A stretch of 64,000 nt of DNA from an uncultured Clostridia bacterium (GTDB lineage Bacteria; Bacillota; Clostridia; Oscillospirales; Ruminococcaceae). The notes beneath the pieces are model-generated. The model saw only the letters and a list, made by a program, of their open reading frames with translations, was not told where the DNA came from and made no database searches. A program made the position numbers and the translations under genes. The DNA lies in the NCBI GenBank assembly GCA_947168885.1, contig CAMVNQ010000003.1, forward strand, positions 189,140-253,139. Direction: 5' to 3'. Of this stretch, positions 2,125 to 47,252 are shown in pieces. Each line of letters begins with the position of its first letter. Position 1 is the first letter of the stretch.

Positions 2125-2160
2125 AATAATTCTCCATACGATATTTAATGTCTGCTCATC

Positions 2161-2399
2161 AACCGCGAATCGGCTTCAAAGCGCAGCTTGAAGCTAATTC
2201 GCGGTTGCAAAAGTGCAAGGGAAATCACAAAAATTCAAATTTGCCTTGCACTTTTGTTCGCCCGAAGGCGAAATGAGCTTGACATCAAGGAATGTGTCCG
2301 CTGTAAAACTCGCTGAAGGCGCGTTTTACAGCGATCCCAAATCCTGTAAAACAAGATTTGGGACAACAACTGCCAAACGGCAGTTGTTGAGGACACATT
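2161..2399 (-). ncRNA. Highly structured intergenic element / candidate leader RNA or repeat
   Basis: Three consecutive hairpins (one with C(UUCG)G on the minus strand) plus a closed four-way junction, between a consensus promoter and the kinase start. Confidence 0.4.
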
Positions 2400-2408
2400 T
2401 TTTATATG

Positions 2409-2437
2409 ATTTTACCATATAATCGGAAAAATGTCAA
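2409..2437 (-). promoter_or_regulatory. Sigma-A promoter facing the structured element and kinase
   Basis: TTGACA-17-TAAAAT on minus strand. Confidence 0.7.
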
Positions 2438-2463
2438 CGTTTTGCGCGTTCAGAGTCCCGCCG

Positions 2464-2492
2464 TTGACAATCGGCTCGTTATGCGGTATAAT
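2464..2492 (+). promoter_or_regulatory. Sigma-A promoter of rmuC
   Basis: Perfect TTGACA-17-TATAAT. Confidence 0.8.
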
Positions 2493-2520
2493 GTTGTTAT
2501 CAGATAAATCGGAGGTCATT

Positions 2521-3984: not shown

Positions 3985-3985
3985 A

Positions 3986-4110
3986 TCCGCGGGCGCGCAC
4001 GGGGTTCCGCCCCGTGACCCCGCGGGGGAGGAAGAAAACCTTTTTGTAGAACGAAAAGGCTTTTCTCCCTCCCCTCGACCCCTCTCTCTTTCCAAAAAAA
4101 CTTTAATAGC
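3986..4110. repeat. GC-rich REP-like hairpin cluster (copy A)
   Basis: CACGGGG-ttccg-CCCCGTG and GGGGAGG...CCTCCCC stems; same module architecture as 12855 and 54653. Confidence 0.6.
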
Positions 4111-4206
4111 TGCCGCGTATGGCTCGACAGTTTCTGCACAATACATAAAAACAGCAGGCCCGAATGTACAGGTCTGCTGTATTTTTTGGATCAACCGGTG
4201 CGGCGA

Positions 4207-4719
4207 TCACCATAAATGAAGCAGCATCATAACTCCGGGTATCCACGCCGTAACAACGCCCTCGAATATCTGGAGCACGGGAACGAACTTTCCGAGCTTC
4301 TTCCCGAAAAGCGCGGGAAGAGATGTTCCCCAGAGAAGCGCCCAGAGCCACCATATCGCCGCCCAGCGTATATCCGGCGTTATGCCGAGCGCCGCACAGC
4401 CGGTAATGCCTTCGACGATACCGAAGACGACCGCGTTTACCGCGACAAATACCGAGAAGATGTGGAACGGCTTGTCGTCGAGCGAAAACAGATCAAGCGC
4501 CGCTACGAAAAGATAAGTGAAGCAGAACAGCAGTCCCGTTCCCGCAGCATAATAATTGCCCTGTATCAGACTGAGGACATTGATGATGAGCGAGAGTCCG
4601 CCTGTAAAAATGTTCATTACCGCGGCGGAACGCGGACTCGCTTTGAGGAGCGTGCAGGCACCGTTGTTGATAAGTACGGCTCCCACAAAAAGCAGACAAA
4701 CTCCGAGCAATTCAGTCAC
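4207..4719 (-). CDS. AmiS/UreI family urea/amide channel
   Basis: Six-TM protein, LLFVGAVLINNG start, GLLFCFTYLF and WWLWALLW motifs. Confidence 0.85.
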   Translation of the reverse strand: MTELLGVCLLFVGAVLINNGACTLLKASPRSAAVMNIFTGGLSLIINVLSLIQGNYYAAGTGLLFCFTYLFVAALDLFSLDDKPFHIFSVFVAVNAVVFGIVEGITGCAALGITPDIRWAAIWWLWALLWGTSLPALFGKKLGKFVPVLQIFEGVVTAWIPGVMMLLHLW

Positions 4720-4722
4720 CTC

Positions 4723-6465
4723 TCATCGGTCAGCAACGGTCTCCCACTTAAGACCCTTTCCGCTTGTGAATTTTCTCGTTTCTTCCAAAGGCATGGGTTT
4801 TCCGAAGTAATAGCCCTGACACTTATCACAGCCTATCGCTTTAAGGAACTCATAGTGCTCCTGAGTTTCGACGCCTTCGGTAAGCGGCTTTACGCCCATT
4901 TCCACTGCGGCGTAAACTATGTAGTTGATAAGGTTGCCGGTACGGGGATTCTTGTCATAGGTGCGAAGGAATTCCATATCGAGCTTAAGTACGTCGAAAT
5001 CGTATTCCATAAGCGTGTTGAGCGAGGAATAACCGCTTCCGAAGTCGTCTATCCAGATCTGATAACCCGATGTGCGGAACTTCTTGCAATCGCCTTTCAG
5101 ATGATCGGACTTGTCGTTCAGGGCGCTTTCCGTTATCTCAATATCAAGCATCTCGCGCGGCACATTGTAAAAGCGGCGATAGCCCTCTACCACCTCAACT
5201 ATGTTGCAGAGCTCAAAGTCAAGACGCGAAAGGTTGACCGAAACGGGAACTATCGGGTCTCCGCGGTCACGGAGCCGCGCATAGTCCTCGCAGACCTTCT
5301 TCACAACAAAACTGTCTATTTTGTGGATAAGGTGGAATTTTTCGAGTGTTTCGATGAAATCCGCGGGGGACAGAAAGCCGAATTTTGGGTCTATCCAGCG
5401 CGCAAGAGCCTCATATCCGCAGATCTCACCTGTCGCAACGCGGATAACGGGCTGATAGAACACCTTTATGTATTCCTTCTCTACCGCGTCGTCGATATAA
5501 TCGACGATATACTGCTGACGGCGGAGCTTTTCATAAAGCGTTACGTCGTATATGCTGTATATCACATCGTAGCGGTGCTTTACGGTGTTGCAGGCAAGAC
5601 GTGCGTGGTCGCACGCGAGACCTACTTCCGTGCAGGTATCGTCGAGCTCATAGATACCCGCGCGTATCTCAACACGCGTACCCTCGATTATCTGCACGAC
5701 CGCATTGTGCACTTTTTCAACAAGATCCTTAACGTTTTCCGCAACAGTGCATACGACAAAGTGGTCGTTCGAGAAGCGCGCTATGATGCTGTAATCGCCG
5801 AAGATGCCGCGGATAGTGTACGCGACGCGGCAGAGCAGATCATCTCCGCGCTGGAAGCCGTAGCGCTCGTTGAATATCTTGAAATTGGTTATATCGAAGT
5901 GAACGAACGTGAATTTCGCCTGTGAACGCTTTTCGGGGTCAGAGATAAGCTCCTGTACCTTCTGATAGAACGTGGACATATTGTAAAGCCCGGTAAGGCG
6001 GTCTGTGTTCTGGTTCATAGAGAATATCTGTGTCTCCGCGAAGCTGTTGCGGCTTCGGTTCAGATACTCGTTCTTGTCTATATCGACGATGTAAACGTAA
6101 AAGTAGCTTTTGCCGTGCTCGCCGTGGAGCAGATGGCCGAAGTCCTCTATGTAGCGCACCTCGCCTGTCTTTGCGATTATACGGTAGCGCACATAGTCGT
6201 GGCGCTTCTCTATGGTCATAGTCTGTGACTGTATCTCGTTCTGTATCTTATCATAATCTTCGGGGTGGACCATACCCTTGAAGCTGTTTCCGGTATATTC
6301 GCGGAACTCCTCCATCGTCTCACAGCCATACAGCTTTATGACGTTATCCTCTGCGAAGAGTATTTCTTCCTTACCTCCGACGTTGTAGATGAAAAACCCT
6401 CCCGGAAGCCCCGTTGGTATATATTTCTCATTTCCGCTTACTACCCTGCTGCTGTCATCGCTCAT
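4723..6465 (-). CDS. PAS + degenerate GGDEF + EAL c-di-GMP phosphodiesterase
   Basis: PAS (VHPEDY), GGDEF site reads FSNDHF, intact YEALARW and DDFGSGYSS. Confidence 0.9.
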   Translation of the reverse strand: MSDDSSRVVSGNEKYIPTGLPGGFFIYNVGGKEEILFAEDNVIKLYGCETMEEFREYTGNSFKGMVHPEDYDKIQNEIQSQTMTIEKRHDYVRYRIIAKTGEVRYIEDFGHLLHGEHGKSYFYVYIVDIDKNEYLNRSRNSFAETQIFSMNQNTDRLTGLYNMSTFYQKVQELISDPEKRSQAKFTFVHFDITNFKIFNERYGFQRGDDLLCRVAYTIRGIFGDYSIIARFSNDHFVVCTVAENVKDLVEKVHNAVVQIIEGTRVEIRAGIYELDDTCTEVGLACDHARLACNTVKHRYDVIYSIYDVTLYEKLRRQQYIVDYIDDAVEKEYIKVFYQPVIRVATGEICGYEALARWIDPKFGFLSPADFIETLEKFHLIHKIDSFVVKKVCEDYARLRDRGDPIVPVSVNLSRLDFELCNIVEVVEGYRRFYNVPREMLDIEITESALNDKSDHLKGDCKKFRTSGYQIWIDDFGSGYSSLNTLMEYDFDVLKLDMEFLRTYDKNPRTGNLINYIVYAAVEMGVKPLTEGVETQEHYEFLKAIGCDKCQGYYFGKPMPLEETRKFTSGKGLKWETVADR

Positions 6466-6618
6466 ATATTATCCCTCCTTGTCGGGCAACAGATTTCTTG
6501 CTTCAGACATATTTTTACTTGTATATTATACACTATTGTCTTAAAATTTTCAATATTTTTTATTCTGAAAATATATAATTTTTTACAGATGCCGACAAAC
6601 ACACGGACAAAACATCAT

Positions 6619-6655
6619 AACGCCTCTTACCCCCAATTCGGGTAAGAGGCGTTTT
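6619..6655. terminator. Intrinsic terminator-like hairpin
   Basis: AACGCCTCTTACCC/GGGTAAGAGGCGTT stem immediately after the stop at 6656. Confidence 0.7.
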
Positions 6656-7789
6656 TCAGCGGTATTCTCCGTACTCACAGCCTATCCTGTCGGCTTTTAT
6701 CTCATCTATAAGCGTTCTTCTGCCGTCTGACGACTTTTTATACAGGCGTATCAGCCCCACGCCGTTGCCCCCGTTCCAAAGCCGGTTGTGACGCTTCGAA
6801 CCGTCGGGAGCTTCATAGTTCACGAGCAGCATATCCTTTTTCCGGCAGCGCACCCGGGTTGTCATGACGGCATTGTTGTTTTCCTGCACAACGTACCAGA
6901 ATATTTCGCTGCCGGTCTCCTTTGAGCGGAACACAGTCTTTGTGCCCGTCCACGGCTTCGAGAAGTTGAACTCATAGGGCGTGCCCTCATACAGAAATGC
7001 GCCGAGGAGCTTGCGTTTAAGCGGAACGCCGTAAATCTTCGGACAGCCGCCGCCGATGTCGAAAACGCTGTTTTCAAGGCGCTTTCCGGTCCTTGTACTT
7101 ATAAGGCTCCACGACGAGAGCCATACCCACGGACTTGTAAAGTTTCTGCCCCAGTTCTTGTCTGCATAGCCGTAGGAAGTCCCGGGAGTTACGGTATAGT
7201 GCTCGCCGTTGAGGGTCACAGTCCCCTTATACAGCGACTTCATACCTTCGGCGTGCCAGTACATTTCGAATGCTTTCGCCTTACGGAGCGGCTCGCTTGC
7301 GCCATATCCGACGTTGAACGGTATCTTCTTGTCGATGCGAAGATCCCACTGCATACTTCCGACACCACACATATAGCCGGGGTCGAGAGCCTGTTCTTCG
7401 GTGACGGTGACACTTCCGCGGAGGATAGTTTCCGAGACCGTGCAGTCGTCGATATGCACCATAAACGGTACGCTGTCGGTGATGCGCACCTTGTTCCACG
7501 GGAAGAAGCGGTGAAGCTGACATTTTCCCTCGCCCCAGCAGCCGGCTTTTACCATAAGATAGGACGGTCTTTTATGGCGTGCGCGGTTTTCGGGGGATTG
7601 ACCGAGTACAGGAACATCTTTGCCGAGTGCGGGATTGCAGGTGAAGAATTCCACAAAGAACTGTTTTTCCTCGCCTGTTCTGTCATTTACACCGGTGAAG
7701 CTGTGCCACCACCAGTCGTAGCCCTCAAAGGCGAATGTTCCGTCGAGCATGAACGCGTCGCGCTCGATGTCATGTGTGTTGAACGGCAT
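6656..7789 (-). CDS. Tocopherol cyclase-like family protein (function unknown)
   Basis: YDWWWHSF, YWHAEGM, YGYADKNWG and WVWLSS aromatic motifs; start 7789 or 7798 after AAAGGA. Confidence 0.7.
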   Translation of the reverse strand: MPFNTHDIERDAFMLDGTFAFEGYDWWWHSFTGVNDRTGEEKQFFVEFFTCNPALGKDVPVLGQSPENRARHKRPSYLMVKAGCWGEGKCQLHRFFPWNKVRITDSVPFMVHIDDCTVSETILRGSVTVTEEQALDPGYMCGVGSMQWDLRIDKKIPFNVGYGASEPLRKAKAFEMYWHAEGMKSLYKGTVTLNGEHYTVTPGTSYGYADKNWGRNFTSPWVWLSSWSLISTRTGKRLENSVFDIGGGCPKIYGVPLKRKLLGAFLYEGTPYEFNFSKPWTGTKTVFRSKETGSEIFWYVVQENNNAVMTTRVRCRKKDMLLVNYEAPDGSKRHNRLWNGGNGVGLIRLYKKSSDGRRTLIDEIKADRIGCEYGEYR

Positions 7790-7859
7790 TGTTATCATAT
7801 CCTTTCTCATCTGATACATTAATGAATAATCCGGATTTTGCGCGGAGATGAATTCCCGG

Positions 7860-8168
7860 CTACATCAGACTTATTATCAATCCCGTAATATACGCCGCCG
7901 CAGACGCAGAAAGCGCCACAACTATCAGCGGAAGTCCGAAATACGCAAGTATCATCGCCGCAGCGGCACCGACAGCCGCAGAAATAACACTTCCCGTCGC
8001 GAAGAATATTGCCGGTATCGTCATAGCGCTAAGTACCGCGTACGGGATATAATACAGAAAACTCTTCAGGAAGCGCGACTTTATCTTCTCGCGGAACATC
8101 GTGAACGGTACCATTCGTATGATATAGGTGACACCCGCCATTACCGCAATGTATATAACGATGCTCAC
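7860..8168 (-). CDS. azlD: AzlD family membrane protein
   Basis: VTYIIRMVPF and FLYYIPYAVLSAM motifs; overlaps azlC stop. Confidence 0.88.
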   Translation of the reverse strand: MSIVIYIAVMAGVTYIIRMVPFTMFREKIKSRFLKSFLYYIPYAVLSAMTIPAIFFATGSVISAAVGAAAAMILAYFGLPLIVVALSASAAAYITGLIISLM

Positions 8169-8881
8169 GGCTGCACCTCCGTTTCATCGTCTTCGTCAGC
8201 CTGTGGGAAAACAAGCGCACATACCACCGCCGCGATAACCGCGCAGATGATCACCGAAAAGCCCGACGATATGAACGGAAGCAGGAAGTATATTATACAG
8301 CTCACCGCCGCGGCGATAAGCACCGCCACGAGCACGCCCTTTTCCTTCCGCGCGGGAGGTATGATGATCGCAAGGAACATCCCGTACAGCATAAGTCCCA
8401 GCGCGTCAGACACGTCCGCAGGAAGAAGGCTCCCCGCCGCAGCGCCGAGTATCGTCCCGAGCACCCACCCGACCGTTGAGATAAGTATCATTCCGTACAT
8501 ATACCACGGCGTTATCTTCCCGGGCTGTGCGGACGCAAGAGCGAATATCTCGTCCGTGATACCGTATGAAACGATAAGCCTGCGCGGAGTCGTAAAGCTC
8601 TTGTCTAGCTTCTGCGAGAGCGAGAGCGACATAAGCGAATAGCGAAGATTTATCGTGAACTGTGCAAGTATCATCTCGACAAGCGAGCCGCCTGCCGCGA
8701 TTATACCTACGCCCGCAGCCTGACCGGCAGAAGTGAGATTGAAAAGCGAGACCGCGGCGGCTTCCATTACTGTAAGCCCCGATTTTACCGCGGTTATGCC
8801 GAATCCGAACGAAACAGAAAGATACCCGAGAAAAATGGGTATCCCGTGTACAAGACCTTTCAGAAAGTGCTGGAATTTCAA
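8165..8881 (-). CDS. azlC: AzlC family branched-chain amino acid exporter
   Basis: TTG start after GGAG; GIPIFLGY, SAGQ, NLRYSLMS, ITDEIFA. Confidence 0.9.
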   Translation of the reverse strand: MKFQHFLKGLVHGIPIFLGYLSVSFGFGITAVKSGLTVMEAAAVSLFNLTSAGQAAGVGIIAAGGSLVEMILAQFTINLRYSLMSLSLSQKLDKSFTTPRRLIVSYGITDEIFALASAQPGKITPWYMYGMILISTVGWVLGTILGAAAGSLLPADVSDALGLMLYGMFLAIIIPPARKEKGVLVAVLIAAAVSCIIYFLLPFISSGFSVIICAVIAAVVCALVFPQADEDDETEVQP

Positions 8882-8993
8882 AACTTTGTCTCCTTATATA
8901 TATCTGTACATTCATTCTATCACATCACGGGACGAATGTCAACCGCATAAAAAGCAGGTTCTCCCCCGCAGTAAGCGAGGGAGAACTATCGTT

Positions 8994-10388
8994 TCACTTA
9001 TTCTGTAACGGAAGAGTTATGATGATCTCGGTACCTTCACCAAGGACACTGCTTATGTCTATCGAGCCGCCGTGTATGCGGATTATCTCGTCTGCGACCG
9101 CAAGACCGATACCGGAGCCGCGCACGGTGTTGTTGGCTTTATAGAACTTCTCCTTGACGTGCGGAAGGTCACTCTCCGCTATGCCGACGCCGTCGTCCTT
9201 GACGGAGATACGGATCTTTCCGCCGCTTATCGACGTGCTTACATGGGTATGACCGCCTTTTTTGCCGTACTTTATCGAGTTGTCGATAATGTTGATGAAC
9301 ACCTGACGCAGACGGTTCTTGTCGCCGTAAACTATGGCTATATCCTCGCTGTCGGAGATCGTAAGCTCTATCTGCTCCTCCTTCGCGCGCTCCTCATACA
9401 TGAGCACCGCGTCGGCAAGCTCGGCGATAACATCAAGGTTCGCCCGCTGAAGCGAGAAGTGACCGTTCTGTATGCGCGAGAAATCGAGAAGCTCCTCGAC
9501 CATTTCCGAAAGCCTTCCCGTTTCCTTGTTGATTATCTGCATTCCCTTGCGGCGGGTTTCGGTATCGTCGATCTCCTCCAGCGTCTCGCTCCAGCCCTTT
9601 ATAGCCGTAAGCGGGGTGCGGAGCTCGTGAGACACCGACGAGATGAACTCATTCTTGATATTCTCCGAGTGCTCAAGCTCGTCCGCCATATAGTTGAAGA
9701 TGTTACAGAGCTCACCTATCTCGTCGGAACTCTCATTTCTTATGCGCACCGAGAAATCGCCTGCCGCGAGCTTTCGCGCAGTGAAACCGACACGGTGTAT
9801 CGGCTGGACGATACTTCTTATGAAGTATATACCTATTACGAACAGAAGAAGCAATATGACCGCGCTGACTGCAAGGACACCGAGAGTTATCGCAACGACC
9901 TGTGCATCGATCTTGTCAAGGGACGCAACTATGCGTATTGCACCGCCGGAAAGCGTATTCATGACCGTGTAAGCCATGTACTTCTCGCCGCTTGAAAATT
10001 TGCCGACGTAATAGCCGCTGTGGCTGTCGGACCTCGCCGCGTCTTCGTAATCGGGCATATCGTAATTGTCCGCAGGGGTGAAGCCGCTGCTTGAAAGATA
10101 TACCTTTCCGTCGCGGTTTATCGCCATGAGCTCGGCATGGTTCTTCTTCTCGAACTGTTCTACCGAGTTGATTATCTCGTCGGAAGAATCCGGTCCCGAC
10201 TCCTCATACAGCCTGTCAACGACGCCGACGACTATGTTCGCCTGTGTTGCGATGTACTGCTGGGCTGCGCCGTAGTAATATCCGCGTATTAGGAAAAATC
10301 CCGAAATATCAAGAATAACGAGCAGCACCGCGACTATGCCGAAGCTTCCGAGAAACCAGCGCGCGGCGATGCTTCTTCCGCGTTTCAT
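8994..10388 (-). CDS. HAMP-containing sensor histidine kinase, translationally coupled to iorB
   Basis: ATG at 10388 overlaps iorB TGA (ATGA); SHELRTPL, DNSIKY, GSGIGLA. Confidence 0.9.
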   Translation of the reverse strand: MKRGRSIAARWFLGSFGIVAVLLVILDISGFFLIRGYYYGAAQQYIATQANIVVGVVDRLYEESGPDSSDEIINSVEQFEKKNHAELMAINRDGKVYLSSSGFTPADNYDMPDYEDAARSDSHSGYYVGKFSSGEKYMAYTVMNTLSGGAIRIVASLDKIDAQVVAITLGVLAVSAVILLLLFVIGIYFIRSIVQPIHRVGFTARKLAAGDFSVRIRNESSDEIGELCNIFNYMADELEHSENIKNEFISSVSHELRTPLTAIKGWSETLEEIDDTETRRKGMQIINKETGRLSEMVEELLDFSRIQNGHFSLQRANLDVIAELADAVLMYEERAKEEQIELTISDSEDIAIVYGDKNRLRQVFINIIDNSIKYGKKGGHTHVSTSISGGKIRISVKDDGVGIAESDLPHVKEKFYKANNTVRGSGIGLAVADEIIRIHGGSIDISSVLGEGTEIIITLPLQNK

Positions 10389-10960
10389 ACTCCGCGGCCG
10401 AGCGCGAACGCCTTCTTGTTGATCTCCATAGCCTTCTTCGGAACACACGCGTCAAGAGCTGCCTGCCATGCTTCTTCGGGGAAGCCGGCAGTCTTCGAGA
10501 TAAGCCCCATGAGCACGACATTGACCGCACGCGAGCTTCCTGCCTGCTCGGCAAGAGAAAGCGCGTCTATCGCGGTAATATCAACACCCTTTGCGCGGAT
10601 CTTTTCGGTAAGGTTTTCGGGATATTCCTGAACGCCCATTATAACGGGCATCGGGTTTATCTGCTGAGAATTTGTGATGATCTTGCCGCCCTTTTTGAGG
10701 TACGGGAGCCAGCGCGCAGCTTCGAGCTCCTCGAACGAGATTATCACATCAGCCTCGCCCTTTTCGATAACGGGCGAGAAGATCTTGTCGCCGTACTTGA
10801 TGTATGTTACGACGGAACCGCCGCGCTGCGACATTCCGTGAACTTCGCTCACCTTTACGTCATATCCCGCGGAGAGAAGCACGTTTCCGAGTATGCGGCT
10901 CGCAAGGAGCGTTCCCTGTCCGCCGACACCGACGAGCATTATTGCTTTTGTTTCAGCCAT
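10385..10960 (-). CDS. iorB: Indolepyruvate ferredoxin oxidoreductase beta subunit
   Basis: GVGGQGTLL and HGMSQRGGSV motifs. Confidence 0.93.
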   Translation of the reverse strand: MAETKAIMLVGVGGQGTLLASRILGNVLLSAGYDVKVSEVHGMSQRGGSVVTYIKYGDKIFSPVIEKGEADVIISFEELEAARWLPYLKKGGKIITNSQQINPMPVIMGVQEYPENLTEKIRAKGVDITAIDALSLAEQAGSSRAVNVVLMGLISKTAGFPEEAWQAALDACVPKKAMEINKKAFALGRGV

Positions 10961-10976
10961 TTTGCGTTACCTCCCC

Positions 10977-12716
10977 TTATTCCTCTATTGCGCCGAACCT
11001 GCACATCTGTGTGCAGAGTCCGCAGCCTACGCAGAGCGTGTTGTCTATCTGTGCCTTGCCGTCGGTTATCGAGATAGCGGGGCAGCCTATCTTCATGCAC
11101 GCCTTGCAGGTCTTGCACTTGTCCTTGTTTACCTTGAACGGCGGGTTGTGCTTTACCGTCTTGAGAAGTGCGCAGGGCTTTCTGCAAATAATCACGCTCG
11201 GAGCGTCCGCAGCAAGCTCTTCCTTTATCACACGCTCGGTCTCGGCGAGATCGCCGGGGTTGATAACGGTGACGCGGTCGATGCCGACAGAGTGGCAGAG
11301 CGCCTCAAGATCGACAGCCGCAGCAGGGTCACCGTAGATGTTCTTGCCGTTCGCAGGGTTGTTCTGGTGACCGGTCATGCCCGTGATGCTGTTATCGAGG
11401 ATAAGTACGGTGGAATTGGTGCGGTTGTACGCTATGTTTATAAGTCCGGTGATGCCGGAATGAATGAATGTCGAGTCGCCGATGACCGCAACAGCCTTGC
11501 CCTCATACTCGCCGCGCATAGCCTTGTTGAAGCCGTGAAGTCCGCTCACGGAAGCACCCATACAGACAGTGGTGTCCATAGCTTCGAGCGGAGCCGCCGA
11601 ACCGAGTGTGTAGCAGCCGATGTCGCCGCTTACGAACACGCCGAGCTTCTTCAGCGTATAGAACACGCCGCGGTGAGGACAGCCTGCGCACATTACAGGC
11701 GGACGTACCGGAATAGTATCTTCGAGCTGAACGAACTCGTTCTTCTCTCCGAGTATCTTTTCGCGCAGGTATGTCTGGGAATATTCGCCGATGAATGTGA
11801 AAAGCTCCTTTCCGATCGGATCAAGCCCTATCTTGCGGCAGTGCGTTTCGATAATGTCGTCAAGCTCCTCGACAACGTAGAGCTTCTTCACCTTTGCGGC
11901 GAAATCCTTTATGAGCTTTACGGGGAGGGGGTTGACCATACCGAGCTTCAAGTAGCTTGCCTTCTCGCCGAGAGCCTCGCGTGCGTACTGATAAGCTGCG
12001 CCGTTGGCTATGATGCCGATCTCGTCGCTGAACATCTCGACTCTGTTGAGGGGAGAAGTCTCCGCATATTCACGAAGTTTCTTTGTGCGCTCCTCAACGA
12101 TGATGTGCTTCGGCTTTGCGTTCGCCGGAGTCATGATGTTCTTGCGCGGATTTTTTGTATAATCGTATCTTACGGTCTTTCTGTCTTCAAGCTCAACTAT
12201 GCTCTGAGAGTGAGCGACACGGGTAGAAAGACGAAGAATAACGGGAGTGTCGAACTGCTCCGATATTTCGTATGCGAGTTTTGTGAACTCCTTGCATTCG
12301 CCGGAATCCGACGGTTCGAGCATAGGCACTTTTGCGCCGATAGCGTGGTTGCGCGAATCCTGCTCATTCTGCGAGGAATGCATACCCTGGTCATCCGCGA
12401 CCGCGAGTACAAATCCGCCGTTAACGCCGGTGTAGGATGCTGTGTAGAGCGGATCGGCGGCTACGTTGAGACCAACGTGCTTCATAGCGCAGAAAGAACG
12501 TCTTCCCGCGAACGAAGCGCCTATTGCCGCTTCACAGGCTACCTTCTCGTTCGGAGCCCATTCGCTGTACATTTCGTTTTTGTCGTAAGTGGAAGCAAAT
12601 TCCGTTATCTCGGTGCTGGGGGTTCCGGGATAGCTCGAAACGAACTCAACGCCCGCTTCATACAATCCTCTCGCCACAGCCTGATTTCCGAGCATCAGAC
12701 CTGCCATAATAACCAT
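10977..12716 (-). CDS. iorA: Indolepyruvate ferredoxin oxidoreductase alpha subunit
   Basis: YPGTPSTE, RPPVMCAGCPHR, GDIGCY, TPP-binding GDSTF, two C-terminal 4Fe-4S motifs. Confidence 0.95.
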   Translation of the reverse strand: MVIMAGLMLGNQAVARGLYEAGVEFVSSYPGTPSTEITEFASTYDKNEMYSEWAPNEKVACEAAIGASFAGRRSFCAMKHVGLNVAADPLYTASYTGVNGGFVLAVADDQGMHSSQNEQDSRNHAIGAKVPMLEPSDSGECKEFTKLAYEISEQFDTPVILRLSTRVAHSQSIVELEDRKTVRYDYTKNPRKNIMTPANAKPKHIIVEERTKKLREYAETSPLNRVEMFSDEIGIIANGAAYQYAREALGEKASYLKLGMVNPLPVKLIKDFAAKVKKLYVVEELDDIIETHCRKIGLDPIGKELFTFIGEYSQTYLREKILGEKNEFVQLEDTIPVRPPVMCAGCPHRGVFYTLKKLGVFVSGDIGCYTLGSAAPLEAMDTTVCMGASVSGLHGFNKAMRGEYEGKAVAVIGDSTFIHSGITGLINIAYNRTNSTVLILDNSITGMTGHQNNPANGKNIYGDPAAAVDLEALCHSVGIDRVTVINPGDLAETERVIKEELAADAPSVIICRKPCALLKTVKHNPPFKVNKDKCKTCKACMKIGCPAISITDGKAQIDNTLCVGCGLCTQMCRFGAIEE

Positions 12717-12745
12717 TCCTTTCTTTTTAAAGCGATATTTATACT

Positions 12746-12774
12746 ATTATATCACAAACCCATAAATTTTGCAA
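12746..12774 (-). promoter_or_regulatory. Promoter of iorA operon
   Basis: TTGCAA-17-TATAAT. Confidence 0.6.
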
Positions 12775-12854
12775 TACCAAATATTCCCGCGATTCACGAA
12801 AAACCGCGGGAATAAACAGGAAACTATCGTTATTTACACGCGAAGCGTTCTGCG

Positions 12855-18148: not shown

Positions 18149-18197
18149 CACGAACGCCCCGGTCGGCAGGAATGCCGTTCCGGGGCGCTTTTGTCAT
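18145..18197. terminator. Bidirectional terminator between convergent genes
   Basis: ATGAC..CGCCCCGG/CCGGGGCG..GTCAT stem. Confidence 0.6.
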
Positions 18198-20008
18198 CAC
18201 AGATATTTCCGTTCATAATCGGCGACAGGTATCGGCTTACTGTAATAGTATCCCTGTATCACCTCACAGCCGAGCGCGCAAAGCTTATCGACCTGCTCTT
18301 TACGTTCGGCTCCCTCGGCAAGGCAGATAAATTTAAGTTCCTTAGCGAGGGCTATGATGTGCCGTATCACCGCGATGTCCTTTTCGCTGTCATTCTCCGT
18401 CCCGACCTTGTCAACAAAGCTCTTGTCGATCTTCAGCGTATCGAGCGGCATCTCTGTCAGCAGCGAAAGCGACGAATAGCCCGTACCGAAGTCGTCCATT
18501 GATATACGGAAGCCCCTTGACCGGAGTTCGTCAAGCACCGAGATCATATACTCGGTGTTGTCGTAGGTCGCGCTTTCCGTAAGCTCGAAATCTATCAGAG
18601 AGTGCTCTATGCCGTAAGAATCGACGATGCCGGTCAGATGCGCTATGAGATTCTTGTCATAGAGACGGTTGCGCGAAAGATTTACAGAGATCGGATAAAG
18701 CGCTCTTCCCTCTTCTTTCCACTTGCTCATCGCCGCGCAGACTTTCTTCAGCACAATGTCGTCTATCTTCCCTATCGAGCCGTCTTTCTCAAAGAACGGT
18801 ATGAATCTGTACGGCGAAAGGAGCTCACGATTTTTGTAGTTCCAGCGTATGAGAGCCTCAGCGCCCTTGATTCGCTCGTTTCGGGCATCTAATTTCGGCT
18901 GGAGATACACCACGAACTCGTCGTTTTCCACCGCGGTATCTAAATACGCCTTGATGTAGTTGCTCCAGAGAATGTCGTTATGCATATTGTCATCGTAGAA
19001 TATGATCTCTGTTCTGCTGCGGTTCGTACCGAGTGCCTGCGCCAGTTTTCCCGCGTCGGCAACACGGTTTCCGGAAAGGATAGCGCGCTGCATGGGGACA
19101 ACGCCGCACCTGTAATATATGGTGTAGTTAGGGTCTTCGTCGAGGTGCGAGAGTTCATCAAAGAAATCGCCGAGCTTCGCCAGCATTTCGTCCTGCGGCA
19201 TATCCTTGAGGATCATCGCAAAGTTGTCGTTATGGCAGCGAGCGCTCGCATAGACGAAATCCGCCTTGTTCATAGCATCGACGATCTTTCTGAGCACCCT
19301 GTTCGCCGCGATGTGACCGTAAACTTCGTTTATAACCTTGAACGACTTCACATCGAAGTGGGCGAAAGCGTAATCGCTCAGTCCCAGATCAGTCGGCATC
19401 TCAAGAGCAGGCACGATGTGGTTCCAGTTGTAGTGCCCCGTTATCTGATCGAAGAACGCCATGCTGAACAGCAGTTCCTTGTCAAGCTTGTCCATATCAT
19501 CGTCGATGATATATTTCGCGTCGTCCTTTTCAACGTTGCATTCATACATTATCCTTATCTTGTTGTATCCGCCGCTGGGGAAAATTCCGATAACGTCCGA
19601 CTCGTCCTTTACGGAGAGCCCGCTGCAATAACGTTTAAGAAGATCTCTTTTCTTCGCTATATCCTTGAAGAGCTCTTTTATGTAAGCAACACTTACCGTT
19701 CCCTCATTGTCTATTTCGATCTGATAGAAGAACGACGCGCCAAGCTTCAGGGTCTTGAGATCATCGGGATAAGCGACCCTGCTGTCGTCCGGACGGTATT
19801 CTATGCCTATGACCGGTCTTTCAAGCCCTTTGACGAAGAACACTCCCGGATAATCGTATGTACCGAAAGCGTGTGTGTACTTTCCGAGCTTTTCTGTGAC
19901 ATTTCCGGCATAGAGAGCTTTTATATCGTCGTCGGAGGCTTCGGTATAGAAGAGTATCCGTTCCGGCTTATACAGCTGATTGAGCATATTGATGAACATT
20001 ATTATCAC
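18197..20008 (-). CDS. Degenerate GGDEF + EAL phosphodiesterase with unrecognised N-terminal domain
   Basis: GGDEF site reads CHNDNF; AEALIRW and DDFGTGYSS intact; alternative ATG at 19999. Confidence 0.88.
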   Translation of the reverse strand: MIIMFINMLNQLYKPERILFYTEASDDDIKALYAGNVTEKLGKYTHAFGTYDYPGVFFVKGLERPVIGIEYRPDDSRVAYPDDLKTLKLGASFFYQIEIDNEGTVSVAYIKELFKDIAKKRDLLKRYCSGLSVKDESDVIGIFPSGGYNKIRIMYECNVEKDDAKYIIDDDMDKLDKELLFSMAFFDQITGHYNWNHIVPALEMPTDLGLSDYAFAHFDVKSFKVINEVYGHIAANRVLRKIVDAMNKADFVYASARCHNDNFAMILKDMPQDEMLAKLGDFFDELSHLDEDPNYTIYYRCGVVPMQRAILSGNRVADAGKLAQALGTNRSRTEIIFYDDNMHNDILWSNYIKAYLDTAVENDEFVVYLQPKLDARNERIKGAEALIRWNYKNRELLSPYRFIPFFEKDGSIGKIDDIVLKKVCAAMSKWKEEGRALYPISVNLSRNRLYDKNLIAHLTGIVDSYGIEHSLIDFELTESATYDNTEYMISVLDELRSRGFRISMDDFGTGYSSLSLLTEMPLDTLKIDKSFVDKVGTENDSEKDIAVIRHIIALAKELKFICLAEGAERKEQVDKLCALGCEVIQGYYYSKPIPVADYERKYL

Positions 20009-22806: not shown

Positions 22807-23934
22807 TTGATAAAAGATGCGTTCCTTCAGAGCCTTGTACAGATAAACTGCATACCTGTGCTTATAATCATCTTCCTTATCTTCTTTCTTCAGACCAACT
22901 ATGCATACGAAAAAGAAATAACCAAAAAGTTCATACCTTCCGTGCTGCTGCTTCTCGCGCTGATACTGGTCGATAACCTTGACTATTACGCCTACGACGC
23001 TCTGGAAGTAACCGGTTTTTTTGATACGCTGCACAGACTTTTCGCCATGCTCGGTTACGATATACGGATAATCCTTATGGCAAGCCTTATATCTGTCGCT
23101 TCGGACCGCGTTTTCGGTCACAAGCACACCGTACTTATCACCTATCTGCCCGCACTGATAAATGTCGCGATCCTGATGCCGTGCCTGTTCACAGACCTGT
23201 TTTTCTACTACAACCCCGACGGCTCCATAGGACGCGGGATCTTCGCGTTTGAACCGCATATCCTGTCCGGAGTATATATGCTGTTCCTGTTCGCGCTCGG
23301 TATCATCTGCAAGAAAAAAGGGCGTGTCGGCGAAACGGGGATACTTCTGCTCTGCGGTCTTCTGACGATATTCGGTTTCCTCGCAGAGTTCCTGTTTGCA
23401 CTGCGCGGCATACTTATCGGAGTCGTGGCGCTCGACATCACGTTCTATTATCTGTATCTGCACATAGAGCACTTCCGCTTCGACTCGCTCACCGAGATAT
23501 TCAACCGTGACGCGTTTATGGCGGATATTGAGAAGTACGGCAGAACAAGCGCCTCGCACCTCATAAGCGTCGATCTCAACGATCTCAAGAAGCTCAACGA
23601 CAAGCTCGGGCACACCGAGGGAGACAAGGCGCTGAAAGCCGTTGCGAGATCTCTGCAGGATTCCTGCCTTAAAGAGTGTTTCGCTTACCGCGTCGGCGGC
23701 GACGAGTTCGCGGTTTTATGTATCGGCAAGACCAACGATCAGGTAAATGAGATGACCCGCCGTATGCGCGAATCCGTGAATGACGCCGGTTATGTCTGTG
23801 CAATAGGCTATACCGAATGGAAGCGCGGCGAAACTTTCAAGGAAGTATATAGAAGAGCCGACGAAACTATGTACAACAATAAACGCGAGCTCAAAGCGCT
23901 AAAAGCCGGAACCGGCAATTCCGAAAAATCATAA
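22807..23934 (+). CDS. Membrane diguanylate cyclase
   Basis: TTG start; about 7 TM segments; DLNDLKKLNDKLGHTEGD and intact YRVGGDEF. Confidence 0.9.
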   Translation: MIKDAFLQSLVQINCIPVLIIIFLIFFLQTNYAYEKEITKKFIPSVLLLLALILVDNLDYYAYDALEVTGFFDTLHRLFAMLGYDIRIILMASLISVASDRVFGHKHTVLITYLPALINVAILMPCLFTDLFFYYNPDGSIGRGIFAFEPHILSGVYMLFLFALGIICKKKGRVGETGILLLCGLLTIFGFLAEFLFALRGILIGVVALDITFYYLYLHIEHFRFDSLTEIFNRDAFMADIEKYGRTSASHLISVDLNDLKKLNDKLGHTEGDKALKAVARSLQDSCLKECFAYRVGGDEFAVLCIGKTNDQVNEMTRRMRESVNDAGYVCAIGYTEWKRGETFKEVYRRADETMYNNKRELKALKAGTGNSEKS

Positions 23935-41708: not shown

Positions 41709-42033
41709 CCTTAGATCTCGGAGAGTTCGGTGTTGCCTTCACTTTGAACTGCGAGGCAGAGAGCCGACTTTTCATGAATCTACCATACGGAGTCGGCGGC
41801 GCCGTCGCGCCTTAGATCTCGGAGAGTTCGGTGTTAAACTCACTCTGAACTGCGAGGCAGAGAGCCGACTTTTCATGAATCTACCATACGGAGTCGGTGG
41901 CGCCGTCGCGCCTTAGATCTCGGAGCCCTCAATGCTGCCTTCACTCTGAACTGCGAGGCAGAGAACCGCCCTGTGATGAATGCATCATACGGAGTCGGTG
42001 GCGCCGTCGCGCCTTAGATCTCGGAGAGTTCGG
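41709..42033. repeat. Tandem array of 101-bp direct repeats (3 units + partial fourth)
   Basis: CCTTAGATCTCGGAG recurs at 41709, 41810, 41911 and 42012. Confidence 0.92.
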
Positions 42034-43777: not shown

Positions 43778-44034
43778 AGGAATGATCCTCCTTAGATGCC
43801 GACTCTGATTTGAATTGAATTTCTGGTTGTGAACCGGCTATAGTATTATACCACATTTTGCACATTTAGTCAAGATTTTTGATAAAGCGTATCCCGCACA
43901 CGGGACAGTAACCGTCATGCAGCAACGCGATAACGTCATTTTGCGGAGGATATAACGTTTTTCACTTGCCGAGCATAAAAAAATGTTGCTTTTTGAATTA
44001 TTATGTGGTAAAATGAAACGGAGAGGTGATAAAG

Positions 44035-44673
44035 TTGAATATTTTTGCCGTTATCTTTATGAATTTCTGGGGATTTGATATTTTCATCTTCCTTGCAGCG
44101 ATATTCAACGGGATCGTGTTTTATCTGGTCAAGCGCTCGGCGGACGCACTTAAAGGACGTATGACCCACAAAATATTCGTTCCGCACTTCAACCTTTCGC
44201 GCCGCGAATCGGACAGGCAGGCAGCAGAACTTCGCGAAGAGGACGTTCTTGAGCTTCGCGGCTCTATGGACAGGTTTTACGCGCTTTTTGTGAACATCAC
44301 GGGAATATTCCCGCTTCTCGGTATCTTAGGAACGGTCGTGTCGCTGCTCGGGCTCGTTTCCGATATGGAGAACGTTACGGGCAACTTCTACGGTGCGCTC
44401 ACATCGACGTTCTGGGGGCTTATTTTCGCTATTCTGTTCAAGTTCCTTGACGGCGTGATCTCTCCCGAGATCGAGAGCAACGAAAAGAACGTGCGCATAT
44501 ACCTTGACAGCAAAACAGCCGAAGAGACCGGTGCCGCACAGCAAGTACCGGAAGAAGCGGTGAACGAAGCCGACACGGAGAACGCCGAGCCCGTGACAAT
44601 ACACTCCGGACCCTTTGAGCCCGAAGTCATAACGCCGGAAAGCGGCGGTGAAGAGGTCGGCGATGAAGAATAA
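44035..44673 (+). CDS. MotA/TolQ/ExbB proton channel family protein
   Basis: TTG start after GAGGTG; FPLLGILGTV and ALTSTFWGLIFAI; acidic tail; promoter TTGCTT-17-TAAAAT at 43986-44014. Confidence 0.85.
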   Translation: MNIFAVIFMNFWGFDIFIFLAAIFNGIVFYLVKRSADALKGRMTHKIFVPHFNLSRRESDRQAAELREEDVLELRGSMDRFYALFVNITGIFPLLGILGTVVSLLGLVSDMENVTGNFYGALTSTFWGLIFAILFKFLDGVISPEIESNEKNVRIYLDSKTAEETGAAQQVPEEAVNEADTENAEPVTIHSGPFEPEVITPESGGEEVGDEE

Positions 44674-45232
44674 GGGAATAGCGATAGAGCTTACCGCACT
44701 GCTCGACGTTATCCTTATAATGCTGTTCTGGGTGATGCTCAATATGGAGGATCAGACCGAGAAGGCAAAGACGGACGCCGCGGAAGCGATAGCCGCGCAG
44801 CAGGCGGAGTTCGACCGCAAAAGCGACGAACTCAGAACTGAGCTCGACATGGTAAAGGCACAGTATGAGCGATTCCTCGACGAAAACGCCGAAGACACCG
44901 CAGTCGCGAACCAGAAGGCGCTCGACGAGTTTGCGGAAGGCCGTATGATAACGCTGAATTTAAGCTACGACGCGGTCGGAAAGCTCTATATACTTGACGA
45001 AAACGGCGAAATAACGCACACGATGCTTGATTCAGAGGGCAATATCGCCGCAAACATAAAGAAAGTGCTCAGAGAACAGGGGCTCGGGAAAGACGACGTT
45101 ATCCTCTGCGCTCTCGTCTATGACGGAAGCAGGGCGCTCTATCGCGACGTAAACCTTGTTACCTCCGCGGCACAGTCCGTCGGCAAGGACTACAGCAAGT
45201 TCTATTGTACATACATAAACATTTCACGATAA
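44663..45232 (+). CDS. ExbD/TolR-like protein with coiled-coil insert
   Basis: Overlaps previous stop; IELTALLDVILIMLF with the conserved intramembrane Asp. Confidence 0.8.
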   Translation: MKNKGIAIELTALLDVILIMLFWVMLNMEDQTEKAKTDAAEAIAAQQAEFDRKSDELRTELDMVKAQYERFLDENAEDTAVANQKALDEFAEGRMITLNLSYDAVGKLYILDENGEITHTMLDSEGNIAANIKKVLREQGLGKDDVILCALVYDGSRALYRDVNLVTSAAQSVGKDYSKFYCTYINISR

Positions 45233-45296
45233 AAATGCTTTTTCCGGCTGCGGAAAAAGCACGGCAAATCCACATCATACCGAAAAGGAGAACAAA

Positions 45297-45776
45297 ATGG
45301 CAAACTACGAAAAAGAAAACAAGAAGCTTGAAAAGCAGAACGCCAGACTGAAGAAAAAGAACAAGGCAGGCGGCAAGATCATACTGGTCCTGCTGCTTAT
45401 AATCGCGATACTCGCGGCTGTCATATTCTTCTTTGACCCGTTCGGCTTCGGCATCGGACCCAACGCACGACAGAACGGCGGCGGAAACGTAAAGACACCT
45501 GCGGCTACTACGGCGGCGACCGCGCAGGCAGAGACGGAAGCACCTGAAGCAGACCCGACCCTGAGCGAATTCAAGGTCACTGTATCGGGAGCAACCTATC
45601 TTCTTGAAGATAAGACCGAGACAACAGCCGAAAAGATCGTTGCTCTCTTTAAGGAGTCCAACAGCAAGACTCTCGTCCGCATAATCGACGAAAGCGCTAC
45701 ACAGAACGCTATGGAAGACCTCAAAAAAGCTCTCGACGCAGAAAAGATACCGTATTCTATCGGCGACCAAGGGTGA
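45297..45776 (+). CDS. Single-pass membrane protein, Thr/Ala linker, ExbD-like C-terminal domain
   Basis: AAGGAG RBS; basic N-terminus, one TM, TPAATTAATAQAETEAP linker. Confidence 0.7.
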   Translation: MANYEKENKKLEKQNARLKKKNKAGGKIILVLLLIIAILAAVIFFFDPFGFGIGPNARQNGGGNVKTPAATTAATAQAETEAPEADPTLSEFKVTVSGATYLLEDKTETTAEKIVALFKESNSKTLVRIIDESATQNAMEDLKKALDAEKIPYSIGDQG

Positions 45777-45789
45777 CGTACAGGAAACC

Positions 45790-45824
45790 GAGGGATTGTG
45801 TAAAATGCACAATCCCTCTTTTTT
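45790..45824 (+). terminator. Intrinsic terminator ending the three-gene motor operon
   Basis: GAGGGATTGTG/CACAATCCCTC + TTTTTT. Confidence 0.8.
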
Positions 45825-45991
45825 GGCTCCGCGTCCCTAAAAGCCGCAGGACGTGCCGCGGCTCCGGAAATTTGTGTAATATGCTATATTTGATAAAATC
45901 GAAAAACGCTTATTGTAATTTACGGAAAAATATTGTATAATAAATGTGTATAGTTTTGATAGAGTTCTGACCGGACAGGAAGGAGAACAAA

Positions 45992-46366
45992 ATGAAAATA
46001 TCAGATATCACCGTAATGCTTTGCGACGATTCTCCTCTCGTAAGAAAAAAACTCGCAGAGATACTTGCCCGCATCGGTATAACCAAGATCATCCATACCG
46101 AAGACGGAGAACAGGCGATAAACGAATATAAAGAAAAAAAGCCCGACCTTGTTTTCATGGATATTGTAATGCCGAAGAAAACGGGTATCGAGGCGCTTCG
46201 TGAGATACGGGCTTTCGACAGTGAGGCAAAGGTAGTAATGGCATCTACCGTCGGCACACAGGGCAACCTCATAGCCGCGATAAAGGAGGGCGCTTTCGAG
46301 TTCCTCCAGAAGCCGGTCAAGGAAGAGGACGTGCTTAAGATCATAAACCGTATGCTCAAGGGATGA
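45992..46366 (+). CDS. cheY: CheY-like stand-alone response regulator
   Basis: LCDDS, VFMDIVMP, FLQKP; promoter TTGTAA-17-TATAAT at 45913-45941. Confidence 0.85.
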   Translation: MKISDITVMLCDDSPLVRKKLAEILARIGITKIIHTEDGEQAINEYKEKKPDLVFMDIVMPKKTGIEALREIRAFDSEAKVVMASTVGTQGNLIAAIKEGAFEFLQKPVKEEDVLKIINRMLKG

Positions 46367-46376
46367 GGGGGAGCTT

Positions 46377-47252
46377 ATGTACACTCAATTATTCGGACAT
46401 TATCTTCTGAACAACGGCGTTATCGACGCAGACGAGCTTCACGCGGCTCTCACGGCAATGTCGCGTATAAAAGCAAAACTCGGTGCAGCGGCGATAGATG
46501 CCGGGTATATGACCGCCGAGCAGGTGGAGGAAGTCCATGAGGCACAGCACACCGTCGATAAGCGTTTCGGCGATATAGCAGTGGAAAAGGGGTTCCTTAC
46601 CGAAGAACAGGTTCGAAGCCTTCTTTCAAGGCAGAAAAATGCCAACCTCGTGCTCGGACAGGCTCTCATAGACTTCGGGTTCATAACGAACAAACAGTTC
46701 GAGGACTCGCTTTTTGATTACAAGAAAAAATTCTCGCTAATAGCCGGAGACACGGAAGAAGAGCGCCTTGAGAACGAAATGATAGAAGTGCTCGGGATAA
46801 ACTCTATGCCCGACAAGGATTTCTACAGCGAATACGCGCTTCTTTTCATACGCAACCTCATACGCTTCCTCGGGGACGACTTCTCGCTCTCGGGTGTAGT
46901 CCGCAACACTACGATCTCGATGAACTACGGCTGCAGCCAAGACGTGACCGGAGCTGTTAATTTCCGTGTCTCGCTCGGCGGCACGGAGCGCGGATTTCTC
47001 GGTATCGCCGCGAGATATGCAGGTGAAGATCTCAACGAGGTGGACGGCTACACAAAGGCGTGCGTCGGCGAGCTTCTGAACCTTCAGAACGGTCTTTTTG
47101 CGGTGAACGAGTCGAACATCCGCGGTGTTGAACTTGTGCTCTCACCCCAGGTATCGGAAGACAACCTTATGATGAATATTCCCGAAAGCGGTCTCGCCGT
47201 AACGCTGAGCTTCCCGTTCGGTGACATAAAGATAGCGGTAGTAAAGCAATAA
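46377..47252 (+). CDS. cheX: CheX-like phosphatase with four N-terminal MshEN-type motifs
   Basis: 29-aa-period (R/K)LGxxxxxxG motifs; C-terminal GELLN (ExxN). Confidence 0.8.
   Translation: MYTQLFGHYLLNNGVIDADELHAALTAMSRIKAKLGAAAIDAGYMTAEQVEEVHEAQHTVDKRFGDIAVEKGFLTEEQVRSLLSRQKNANLVLGQALIDFGFITNKQFEDSLFDYKKKFSLIAGDTEEERLENEMIEVLGINSMPDKDFYSEYALLFIRNLIRFLGDDFSLSGVVRNTTISMNYGCSQDVTGAVNFRVSLGGTERGFLGIAARYAGEDLNEVDGYTKACVGELLNLQNGLFAVNESNIRGVELVLSPQVSEDNLMMNIPESGLAVTLSFPFGDIKIAVVKQ

Follow-up and report, generated by a model that had tools for sequence, protein, structure and literature searches.

A conserved three-gene operon of monoderm Clostridia encodes a MotA/ExbB-family channel subunit, a predicted ExbD/TolR-type subunit and an obligate tethered partner

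The stretch analysed here, hereafter the window, comprises 64,000 nucleotides of contig CAMVNQ010000003.1 from an uncultured Clostridia bacterium, and coordinates are positions in it unless a locus is named. The unit under study, at 44035-45824, is one transcription unit of three open reading frames (ORFs), g1, g2 and g3, all on the + strand, which form a compact trio of about 560 residues over three proteins. Here, we found that g1 is a channel subunit of the MotA/ExbB family, that g2 is strongly supported by sequence comparison as a divergent subunit of the ExbD/TolR family, and that g3, a membrane-anchored protein whose small head follows a flexible linker, is their obligate third partner. 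ExbB/ExbD and TolQ/TolR motors are usually explained by energising an outer membrane. The lineage of the present host, Ruminococcus and relatives within Bacillota/Clostridia, is monoderm, as the initial annotation of this DNA had supposed.

RESULTS

Layout and transcription of the operon

The genes and signals of the locus are collected in Table 1. The start of g1 is best placed at the TTG codon at 44035, because homologues share the N-terminus MNIF(S/A)VIFMNFWG, a GAGAGG ribosome-binding site precedes this codon and RNA contigs begin at 44032 and 44037; none lies over 43826-44031, although such contigs show presence only, not absence. The reading frames of g1 and g2 overlap by 11 nt in the window and by 4 nt in most relatives, and g2 has the same length, 189 aa, in its homologues.

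Table 1. Genes and regulatory signals of the trio locus in the window
Feature	Position	Strand	Description	Basis
Putative operon promoter	43986..44014	+	-35 TTGCTT, 17-nt spacer, extended -10 TGgTAAAAT	direct sequence reading
g1	44035..44673	+	212 aa; minimal MotA/ExbB/TolQ-family channel subunit	Pfam PF01618
g2	44663..45232	+	ATG start, 189 aa; predicted ExbD/TolR-type axle subunit	
Hairpin in the g2-g3 gap	45235..45262		12 bp, GC-rich	sequence scan
g3	45297..45776	+	ATG start behind AGGAG site, 159 aa; single-pass partner protein	
Intrinsic terminator ending the operon	45790..45824	+	13-bp stem (45790-45818), then TTTTTT	
Separate promoter ahead of cheY	45913..45941		TTGTAA-17-TATAAT	

The sequence TTGCTT-17-TGgTAAAAT ahead of g1 would serve as the operon's own promoter; it is missing from the output of the consensus promoter scan on account of its weak -35 box. 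Since no T-run follows the hairpin between g2 and g3 on the + (coding) strand, this element is not the operon terminator, and it may act as a processing or stabilising element inside the operon. A self-contained operon with a terminator at 45790 had been annotated initially; its coordinates are correct, the 13-bp stem and the six T residues are present, and the order of the trio is conserved. Contigs from four rumen metatranscriptomes span parts of g1, g2, g3 and cheY; they end at about 45783 and restart at about 45959, again showing presence only, not absence. The three genes g1-g3 are transcribed in the rumen.

The channel subunit and its Asp-bearing partner

The g1 protein scores 38.4 bits against the Pfam family MotA_ExbB (PF01618), above the cut-off of 22.9, and contains the family motifs P-x-LG-x-xGT and A-x-x-T of the second and third transmembrane helices (TM2 and TM3), which shows it to be a channel subunit of the MotA/ExbB family. 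This is what had been read from the window at the outset, and all motifs quoted then were found again: FPLLGILGTV and ALTSTFWGL in g1, LLDVIL in g2, and the C-terminus of g3. We found 537 homologues of g1. The motifs FPLLGILGTV and ALTSTFWGL are invariant. Hydropathy resolves three hydrophobic segments (residues 3-32, 90-108 and 120-142), a topology like that of ExbB and TolQ. The cytoplasmic loop is basic and measures about 50 aa; a C-terminal helix is conserved, and the acidic tail is variable. Across 82 species, the conservation of TM2-TM3 amounts to 89%.

The membrane helix of g2, GIAIELTALLDVILIMLFWVM, contains Asp15. Its N-terminal helix, GI(A/V/I)IELTALLDVI(L/M/F)IMLFW, is invariant across 35 sequences, and over the 82 species it is conserved at 89%, equal to TM2-TM3 of g1. 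In an AlphaFold2 model (pLDDT, the predicted local distance difference test score, 80), residues 3-90 form a single helix, followed by a head of the order beta-beta-beta-alpha-beta-alpha-beta (94-186). The stalk is a coiled coil of about 60 residues that runs to about residue 90.

We searched the g2 profile against 1.84 billion representative proteins and obtained 525 family clusters at E<=1e-3, of which 186 remain at E<=1e-10; the family thus has at least 525 clusters. Distant full-length relatives (E 1e-13 to 1e-30) carry the helix LDFTSLLDVIMIILFFF, and two of them, P0295 and P0312, reach 27.1 and 27.4 bits on Pfam ExbD (PF02472; cut-off 25.4); some are named ExbD by NCBI and JGI. Within the nearer family, weak ExbD matches occur in 17 of 35 members, ExbD being the most frequent weakly matched family. 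Indeed, because full-length relatives recovered by the g2 profile pass the ExbD cut-off, g2 itself is placed in this family by transitivity. The profile-profile alignment by hhalign agrees: Asp15 falls on D25 of ExbD and on the TolR Asp with the helices in register (E=1e-4, probability 56%). The template for this alignment combined the E. coli ExbD sequence, verified against PDB 6tyi, with a presumed E. coli TolR row. Together, these comparisons strongly support g2 as a divergent axle subunit of the ExbD/TolR family to which a coiled-coil stalk has been added.

Two cysteines of the g2 head, Cys149 and Cys182 on neighbouring strands, are invariant in the Ruminococcus branch and absent from the distant branches; they may form a branch-specific disulfide.

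The third, tethered subunit

The g3 protein begins with a basic N-terminus (net charge about +6), followed by a membrane helix (27-46), a disordered linker rich in Thr, Ala, Pro and Glu (about 55-88) and a head (91-156). Charge co-variation between the acidic tail of g1 and this basic N-terminus amounted to rho=-0.18 (p=0.15). In the AlphaFold2 model the head reaches a pLDDT of about 88, the linker lies below 50 (60-87), and the head shows the element order beta-beta-(beta)-alpha-beta-alpha-beta. No match to g3 was found in Pfam, NCBIfam, PADLOC or PHROGs.

It had been proposed that the C-terminus of g3 resembles the periplasmic domain of ExbD. The order of elements is in keeping with this, and Foldseek superposes the head on the E. 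coli ExbD periplasmic domain (8p9r_A) with a TM-score of 0.67 (target-normalised) and a root-mean-square deviation of 2.9 A over 73 columns. Against an ExbD/TolR mini-alignment, hhalign brings the whole head into register from beta1 to alpha2 (53-62 columns) and scores 20.7-22.6, compared with 9.1-9.4 +/- 1.8 for 150 column shuffles, none of which reaches this value, and with a maximum of 19.9 for 40 unrelated real control families. We therefore consider an ExbD-type head for g3 somewhat more probable than another fold, on the basis of the model and the profile comparison.

The membrane helix of g3, IILVLLLIIAILAAVIFFF, is of a different kind. It contains no His and no Ser, and no acidic residue lies inside the membrane span; it is 43% conserved over the 82 species versus 89% for the helix of g2; and in the wider family the FDPFG at its outer end is not conserved. 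Full-length hhalign comparison of g2 with g3 detected no similarity, helices included, and the two heads show a weak similarity (17.2 vs 8.6 +/- 1.8). Because it lacks a membrane Asp and its helix is poorly conserved, g3 would not be a second axle subunit.

Distribution, linkage and selection

Is the third gene a constant companion of the pair? In a scan with one genome for each GTDB species, g2 had relatives in about 106 species, and we kept 80 loci for analysis, which belong to Ruminococcus, rumen 'Ruminiclostridium' metagenome-assembled genomes (MAGs) and Oscillospiraceae (Bacillota, Clostridia). These groups are Gram-positive monoderms. Among the Ruminococcus loci are those of R. albus AR67 and KH2T6, of R. 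flavefaciens MAGs and of the strains XPD3002 and FC2018. The order g1-g2-g3 on one strand is kept in 79 of 83 loci; three of the four exceptions are contig ends and one is a true loss of g3 (L062), so that the arrangement holds in 79 of 80 checkable loci. The co-occurrence of g3 with the pair, on which the initial annotation had staked its reading, is thus nearly without exception, and g3 is an obligate third partner of g1 and g2.

No other gene shares this constancy. Clustering of neighbours over 82 loci recovered g1, g2 and g3 in 82, 82 and 78 loci, the next commonest family in 22. Around the trio lie genes for metallophosphatase, patatin, PaaK, the shikimate pathway, ComEA-like proteins and amidohydrolase, and the 139 immediate neighbours that we surveyed with Pfam are metabolic and housekeeping genes with no shared functional theme. 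Synteny holds inside sub-branches: 10 loci share PaaK/ACT, and others share metallophosphatase, shikimate or ComEA genes. As first described for the operon, we detected neither TonB nor an OmpA-type domain nor a Zorya effector in the trio, and none of them among its conserved neighbours; near the window trio we found no gene for TonB, TolA or a TonB-dependent transporter (TBDT).

For the window genes compared with those of L002-L005, we calculated the synonymous substitution rate (dS) and its ratio to the nonsynonymous rate (dN/dS). The ratio was 0.03-0.09 for g2, 0.10-0.17 for g1 and 0.14-0.21 for g3. Flanking metabolic and housekeeping genes mostly lie at 0.03-0.07, the ACT-domain gene reaches up to 0.13 (vs L005) and the gene for a methyl-accepting chemotaxis protein (MCP) 0.15. 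The trio is under purifying selection; g3 is the fastest-evolving gene of the neighbourhood, and its rate, like that of the g1 tail, is several times that of the neighbours. The dS and GC content of the trio are similar to those of the flanks, and on these grounds we rejected a recent horizontal transfer of the window copy. By these sequence measures, the trio at the window locus is functional and vertically inherited.

Distant branches, mobile elements and defence islands

Via members of the g2 family we sampled eight distant branches, and the trio was present in all eight, with proteins A, B and C of 132-185, 186-210 and 128-156 aa. Of the C proteins, those of L083 (E=8e-28) and L086 (E=4e-14) are matched by the g3 model, and each of the eight can be aligned with the head of g3. 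Four branches (L083, L086, L093, L097) lie among housekeeping genes and L099 is ambiguous, while three (L089+L090, L091+L092, L095+L096) lie on mobile elements or in defence islands, a setting that the initial annotation had not foreseen. The context of L089/L090 comprises genes for an S24 repressor, integrases, ParAB, RepA_N, Mrr, MutH and a methylase. In L089, a 1004-aa UvrD/GajB-like helicase with a ZorC EH-signature C-terminus (1545-4559 of that locus; E=1.6e-8) is encoded 3 kb upstream of the trio. The trio of L091/L092 adjoins a JetD_C (Wadjet-like) cluster, and that of L095/L096 is flanked by serine recombinases. A scan of the IMG/VR viral contigs with the window branch and one mobile-element branch yielded no copies, and PADLOC returned no significant match for g1-g3 or for the mobile-element versions.

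Some further features of these loci were recorded. L089 and L090 have in common a block (4633-9000) of S24 repressor, HTH proteins and trio, set in two different mobile or defence contexts. In L091 (8411-15906) the trio is followed by a CAP-domain protein and then by the JetD_C / DUF6063 / 1447-aa Wadjet-like cluster. A 200-aa prepilin-type (N_methyl) protein is encoded two genes downstream of the trio in L083 (10974-11576), as well as in L084 and L085, and not elsewhere. A trio of small ORFs upstream in L086, considered as a paralogous cassette, was found to be unrelated.

Chemotaxis and signalling genes around the window trio

The initial annotation had placed an MCP gene 2.4 kb upstream of the operon and, directly downstream, genes for CheY and MshEN-CheX; this placement is correct. 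The downstream pair (45992-47252) forms its own transcription unit and encodes a CheY-like receiver of 124 aa and then a 291-aa protein with two MshEN-type motifs for binding cyclic di-GMP (c-di-GMP; NF053729, E=1e-23); the C-terminus of the latter is weakly CheX-like (E=0.006). The functional link hinted at was not borne out: of the 83 loci, the window, L002 and L003 are the three with CheY and MshEN-CheX neighbours, and the window, L002 and L071 the three with a neighbouring MCP. Because these neighbours are so rare, the chemotaxis neighbourhood of the window trio is incidental.

In L071 (3298-7089), a divergent species and the only other MCP-adjacent locus besides the window and L002, an MCP-like ORF ends 17 nt upstream of g1; its PaaK is 89% identical to that of the window, its g2 only 39%. 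In the window, a 101-bp unit is repeated in 3.2 tandem copies (87% matches) at 41709-42033, in the gap between the convergent MCP and ACT-domain genes, and scans of this region for Rfam families and tRNAs were empty. Signalling genes are dense at 835-34170: a GGDEF-EAL gene at 18197-20008 (-), a GGDEF gene at 22807-23934 (+), an EAL gene at 31984-34170 (-) and HisKA kinases at 835-2124 and 8994-10448 (-). Large ORFs without a Pfam match lie at 4216-5925, 6656-7819, 10893-12815 and 29876-31980.

DISCUSSION

Based on the family identities of g1 and g2, the equal conservation of their membrane helices, the translational coupling of the genes and the obligate presence of g3, we propose that the three proteins belong to one membrane machine of the 5:2 class of rotary motors driven by ions, in which a pentamer of A subunits encloses a dimer of B subunits. 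More specifically, we propose that the trio forms a motor of composition (g1)5(g2)2 with g3 as a tethered cell-wall partner, a model whose chances, judged from sequences and predicted structures, we regard as evenly balanced. Five g1 subunits would ring one g2 dimer, and the path of the protons would lie between Asp15 of g2 and the TM2-TM3 helices of g1, lined by Thr/Ser; their passage would turn the g1 ring about the g2 axle. The g2 dimer would extend outward through its coiled-coil stalk, which at about 60 residues would measure about 9 nm, and place its ExbD-like head in the inner wall zone, where it could anchor to or sense the wall. g3 would be held by its own helix, probably beside the ring, and would present its small ExbD-type head on a disordered tether of about 40 residues; the likeliest partner of this head would be that of g2 or a component of the wall. 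g3 would then be either the output element that receives the work, as TolA and TonB are in diderms, or a gate. The output would be an envelope process independent of an outer membrane, of flagella and of chemotaxis genes; surface motility, polysaccharide uptake and surface-protein export, all named initially, are pure guesses.

Several observations weigh against this model. The best solved relatives of the g1 profile are Aquifex MotA (E=0.006) and flagellar MotA/PomA, and ExbB and TolQ are absent from the PDB matches; 'ExbB-type' accordingly describes the topology of g1 and implies no closer sequence kinship. The description of g2 as ExbD/TolR-like with a membrane Asp stands by transitivity and by the register of Asp15 with D25, but its own score on Pfam ExbD (14.2-14.4 bits) is under the cut-off of 25.4. 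Its head aligns with that of ExbD in register yet weakly (13.7 vs 8.6 +/- 1.5 for shuffles, 1 of 100 of which reaches it), the top 50 Foldseek matches of the head contain no ExbD and are led by uS11 and RNase-H-like folds, and a PDB sequence search with the g2 profile gave no significant match to ExbD, TolR, ExbB or TonB. For the g3 head, the element order, the TM-score and the top profile-profile score favour an ExbD fold, whereas the Foldseek E value of 0.37 makes the structural match only suggestive; no Foldseek match of g3 reaches E<=1e-3, uS11-like folds outrank ExbD and TonB is not among the matches. Moreover, hmmsearch of the PDB with the g3 and g3 head-only profiles returned no ExbD and no significant match to TolR, ExbB or TonB, and the ExbD head itself scores 22.5 in hhalign against one unrelated control family. 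Finally, three of the eight distant branches lie on mobile elements or in defence islands.

The last point leads to the alternative that deserves most attention, namely that the trio is a self-contained defence or mobile module, Zorya-like and without effector, in which heads at the wall sense phage damage or DNA entry and the channel collapses the membrane potential in an abortive infection or blocks entry. The phage-type repressors, integrases, ParAB, RepA_N and restriction genes beside L089 and L090, the helicase with the ZorC EH-signature in L089, the Wadjet-like cluster of L091 and L092 and the serine recombinases of L095 and L096 all fit such a module, as do the self-sufficiency of a trio with no conserved neighbours and the position of g3 as the fastest-evolving gene of its surroundings. 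The window branch, however, sits among housekeeping genes with synteny kept inside sub-branches, its dS and GC content equal those of the flanks, and no positive selection was detected (dN/dS <=0.21). Nor did we find an effector gene, a significant PADLOC match, a PHROGs match or a copy in the IMG/VR viral contigs. As an explanation of the trio as a whole, defence is in our view unlikely; in the window branch we give a chromosomal envelope function better odds than defence, and in the mobile-element branches a role like that of Zorya has to be taken seriously. We hold a broader scheme to be similarly improbable, in which the trio would be a new class of single-membrane motor, with g3 as an ExbD paralogue minus the ion-relay helix, mobile copies acting as effector-less Zorya-like sensors of wall damage that open the channel, and chromosomal copies serving wall maintenance.

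The remaining alternatives are weaker still. The initial annotation had suggested two different axle subunits, and a mixed g2 and g3 axle (5:1:1), as in AglQ/AglS of Myxococcus, would suit two single-pass proteins that both have the N-terminus inside, heads of equal topology with weak profile similarity (17.2 vs 8.6 +/- 1.8) and strict co-occurrence; but without an acidic residue in its span, with FDPFG not kept, a conservation of 43% vs 89% and no detectable similarity to the g2 helix, the g3 helix makes such an axle quite improbable. A flagellar or type IV pilus stator under the control of CheY, MshEN-CheX and MCP would account for the chemotaxis-type neighbours and the many c-di-GMP genes of the window and for MotA/PomA as the best solved relatives of g1. 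These neighbours are, however, rare (3 of 83 loci in each case), a terminator and a separate promoter split g3 from cheY, g1 has three helices rather than four and its loop measures about 50 aa, and an OmpA-type domain is lacking in g2. The trio also occurs in R. albus and R. flavefaciens, which are non-motile cocci, and we judge a stator role very unlikely. Least credible of all is a decaying, non-functional Ton/Tol remnant, as proposed for the Ton components of monoderm Clostridia (PMC12204202). A host without an outer membrane, and with no TonB, TolA or TBDT gene nearby, would fit it, but the conservation data contradict it: about 106 species keep the frames uninterrupted, dN/dS is 0.03-0.21, functional residues are invariant, the genes are transcribed and the family holds at least 525 clusters.

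We thus return to the 5:2 motor with a tethered third subunit as our working model and ask what it adds. Ton components in monoderm Clostridia were judged likely non-functional in a study that did not cover Ruminococcus (PMC12204202); against this view stands an intact, transcribed trio under purifying selection in about 106 species, which are major fibre degraders of rumen and gut. The constant third protein makes it a testable question what such a motor does without an outer membrane. The small size of the trio suits structural work, and the copies on mobile elements hint at a possible defence role. In the literature on Ruminococcus ExbB/TolQ and on Gram-positive Zorya-like systems we found no description of the trio.

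How does the trio compare with known systems? With Ton (ExbB-ExbD-TonB) and Tol (TolQ-TolR-TolA) it shares the gene order of channel, Asp subunit and single-pass protein with a flexible linker and small C-terminal domain, as well as the membership of g1 in PF01618, a g2 helix that aligns with that of ExbD/TolR including the Asp, and heads of apparent ExbD/TolR topology. In contrast to these systems, the trio resides in a monoderm with no TBDT, Pal or TolB present; a coiled coil of 60 residues is found in g2 and not in ExbD or TolR, and g1 has only about half as large a cytoplasmic domain. Unlike TonB and TolA, g3 has no TonB_C domain, TolA domain III, SHLS-type helix motif or helix His, and its head appears ExbD-like rather than TonB-like, so that only the layout of anchor, linker and small head is common.

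The AglR-AglQ-AglS motor of Myxococcus xanthus likewise combines one TolQ-like with two TolR-like proteins that are encoded together. AglQ and AglS both carry the membrane Asp, whereas g3 does not and would not complete a double axle; moreover, AglRQS works in a diderm and is coupled to the Glt complex. MotAB and PomAB belong to the same superfamily, and MotA provides the best solved matches to the g1 profile, but MotA has four helices and a large FliG-binding domain and MotB a plug and an OmpA-type peptidoglycan-binding domain, none of which is found in the trio, and the trio has no conserved flagellar neighbours. A survey of MotAB homologues described 'generic ion transporter' (GIT) clades of unknown function (PMC12505986), which resemble the trio as non-flagellar MotAB/ExbBD homologues with compact heads of the B subunit and no plug; its genome table holds no Ruminococcus, and a conserved third subunit is not described. 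Zorya ZorAB is a further MotAB/ExbBD-like pair outside motility and transport, and among the distant relatives of the trio some are found in defence islands. The trio differs from it in having neither the long ZorA tail nor ZorC, ZorD or ZorE and no effector in the operon, in its insignificant PADLOC scores and in its third gene, which encodes a membrane-anchored protein predicted to be extracellular. Judged by its sequence features, the combination of g1 and g2 with a fixed g3 is therefore a variant in its own right, distinct from TonB/TolA, AglRQS, flagellar stators and Zorya.

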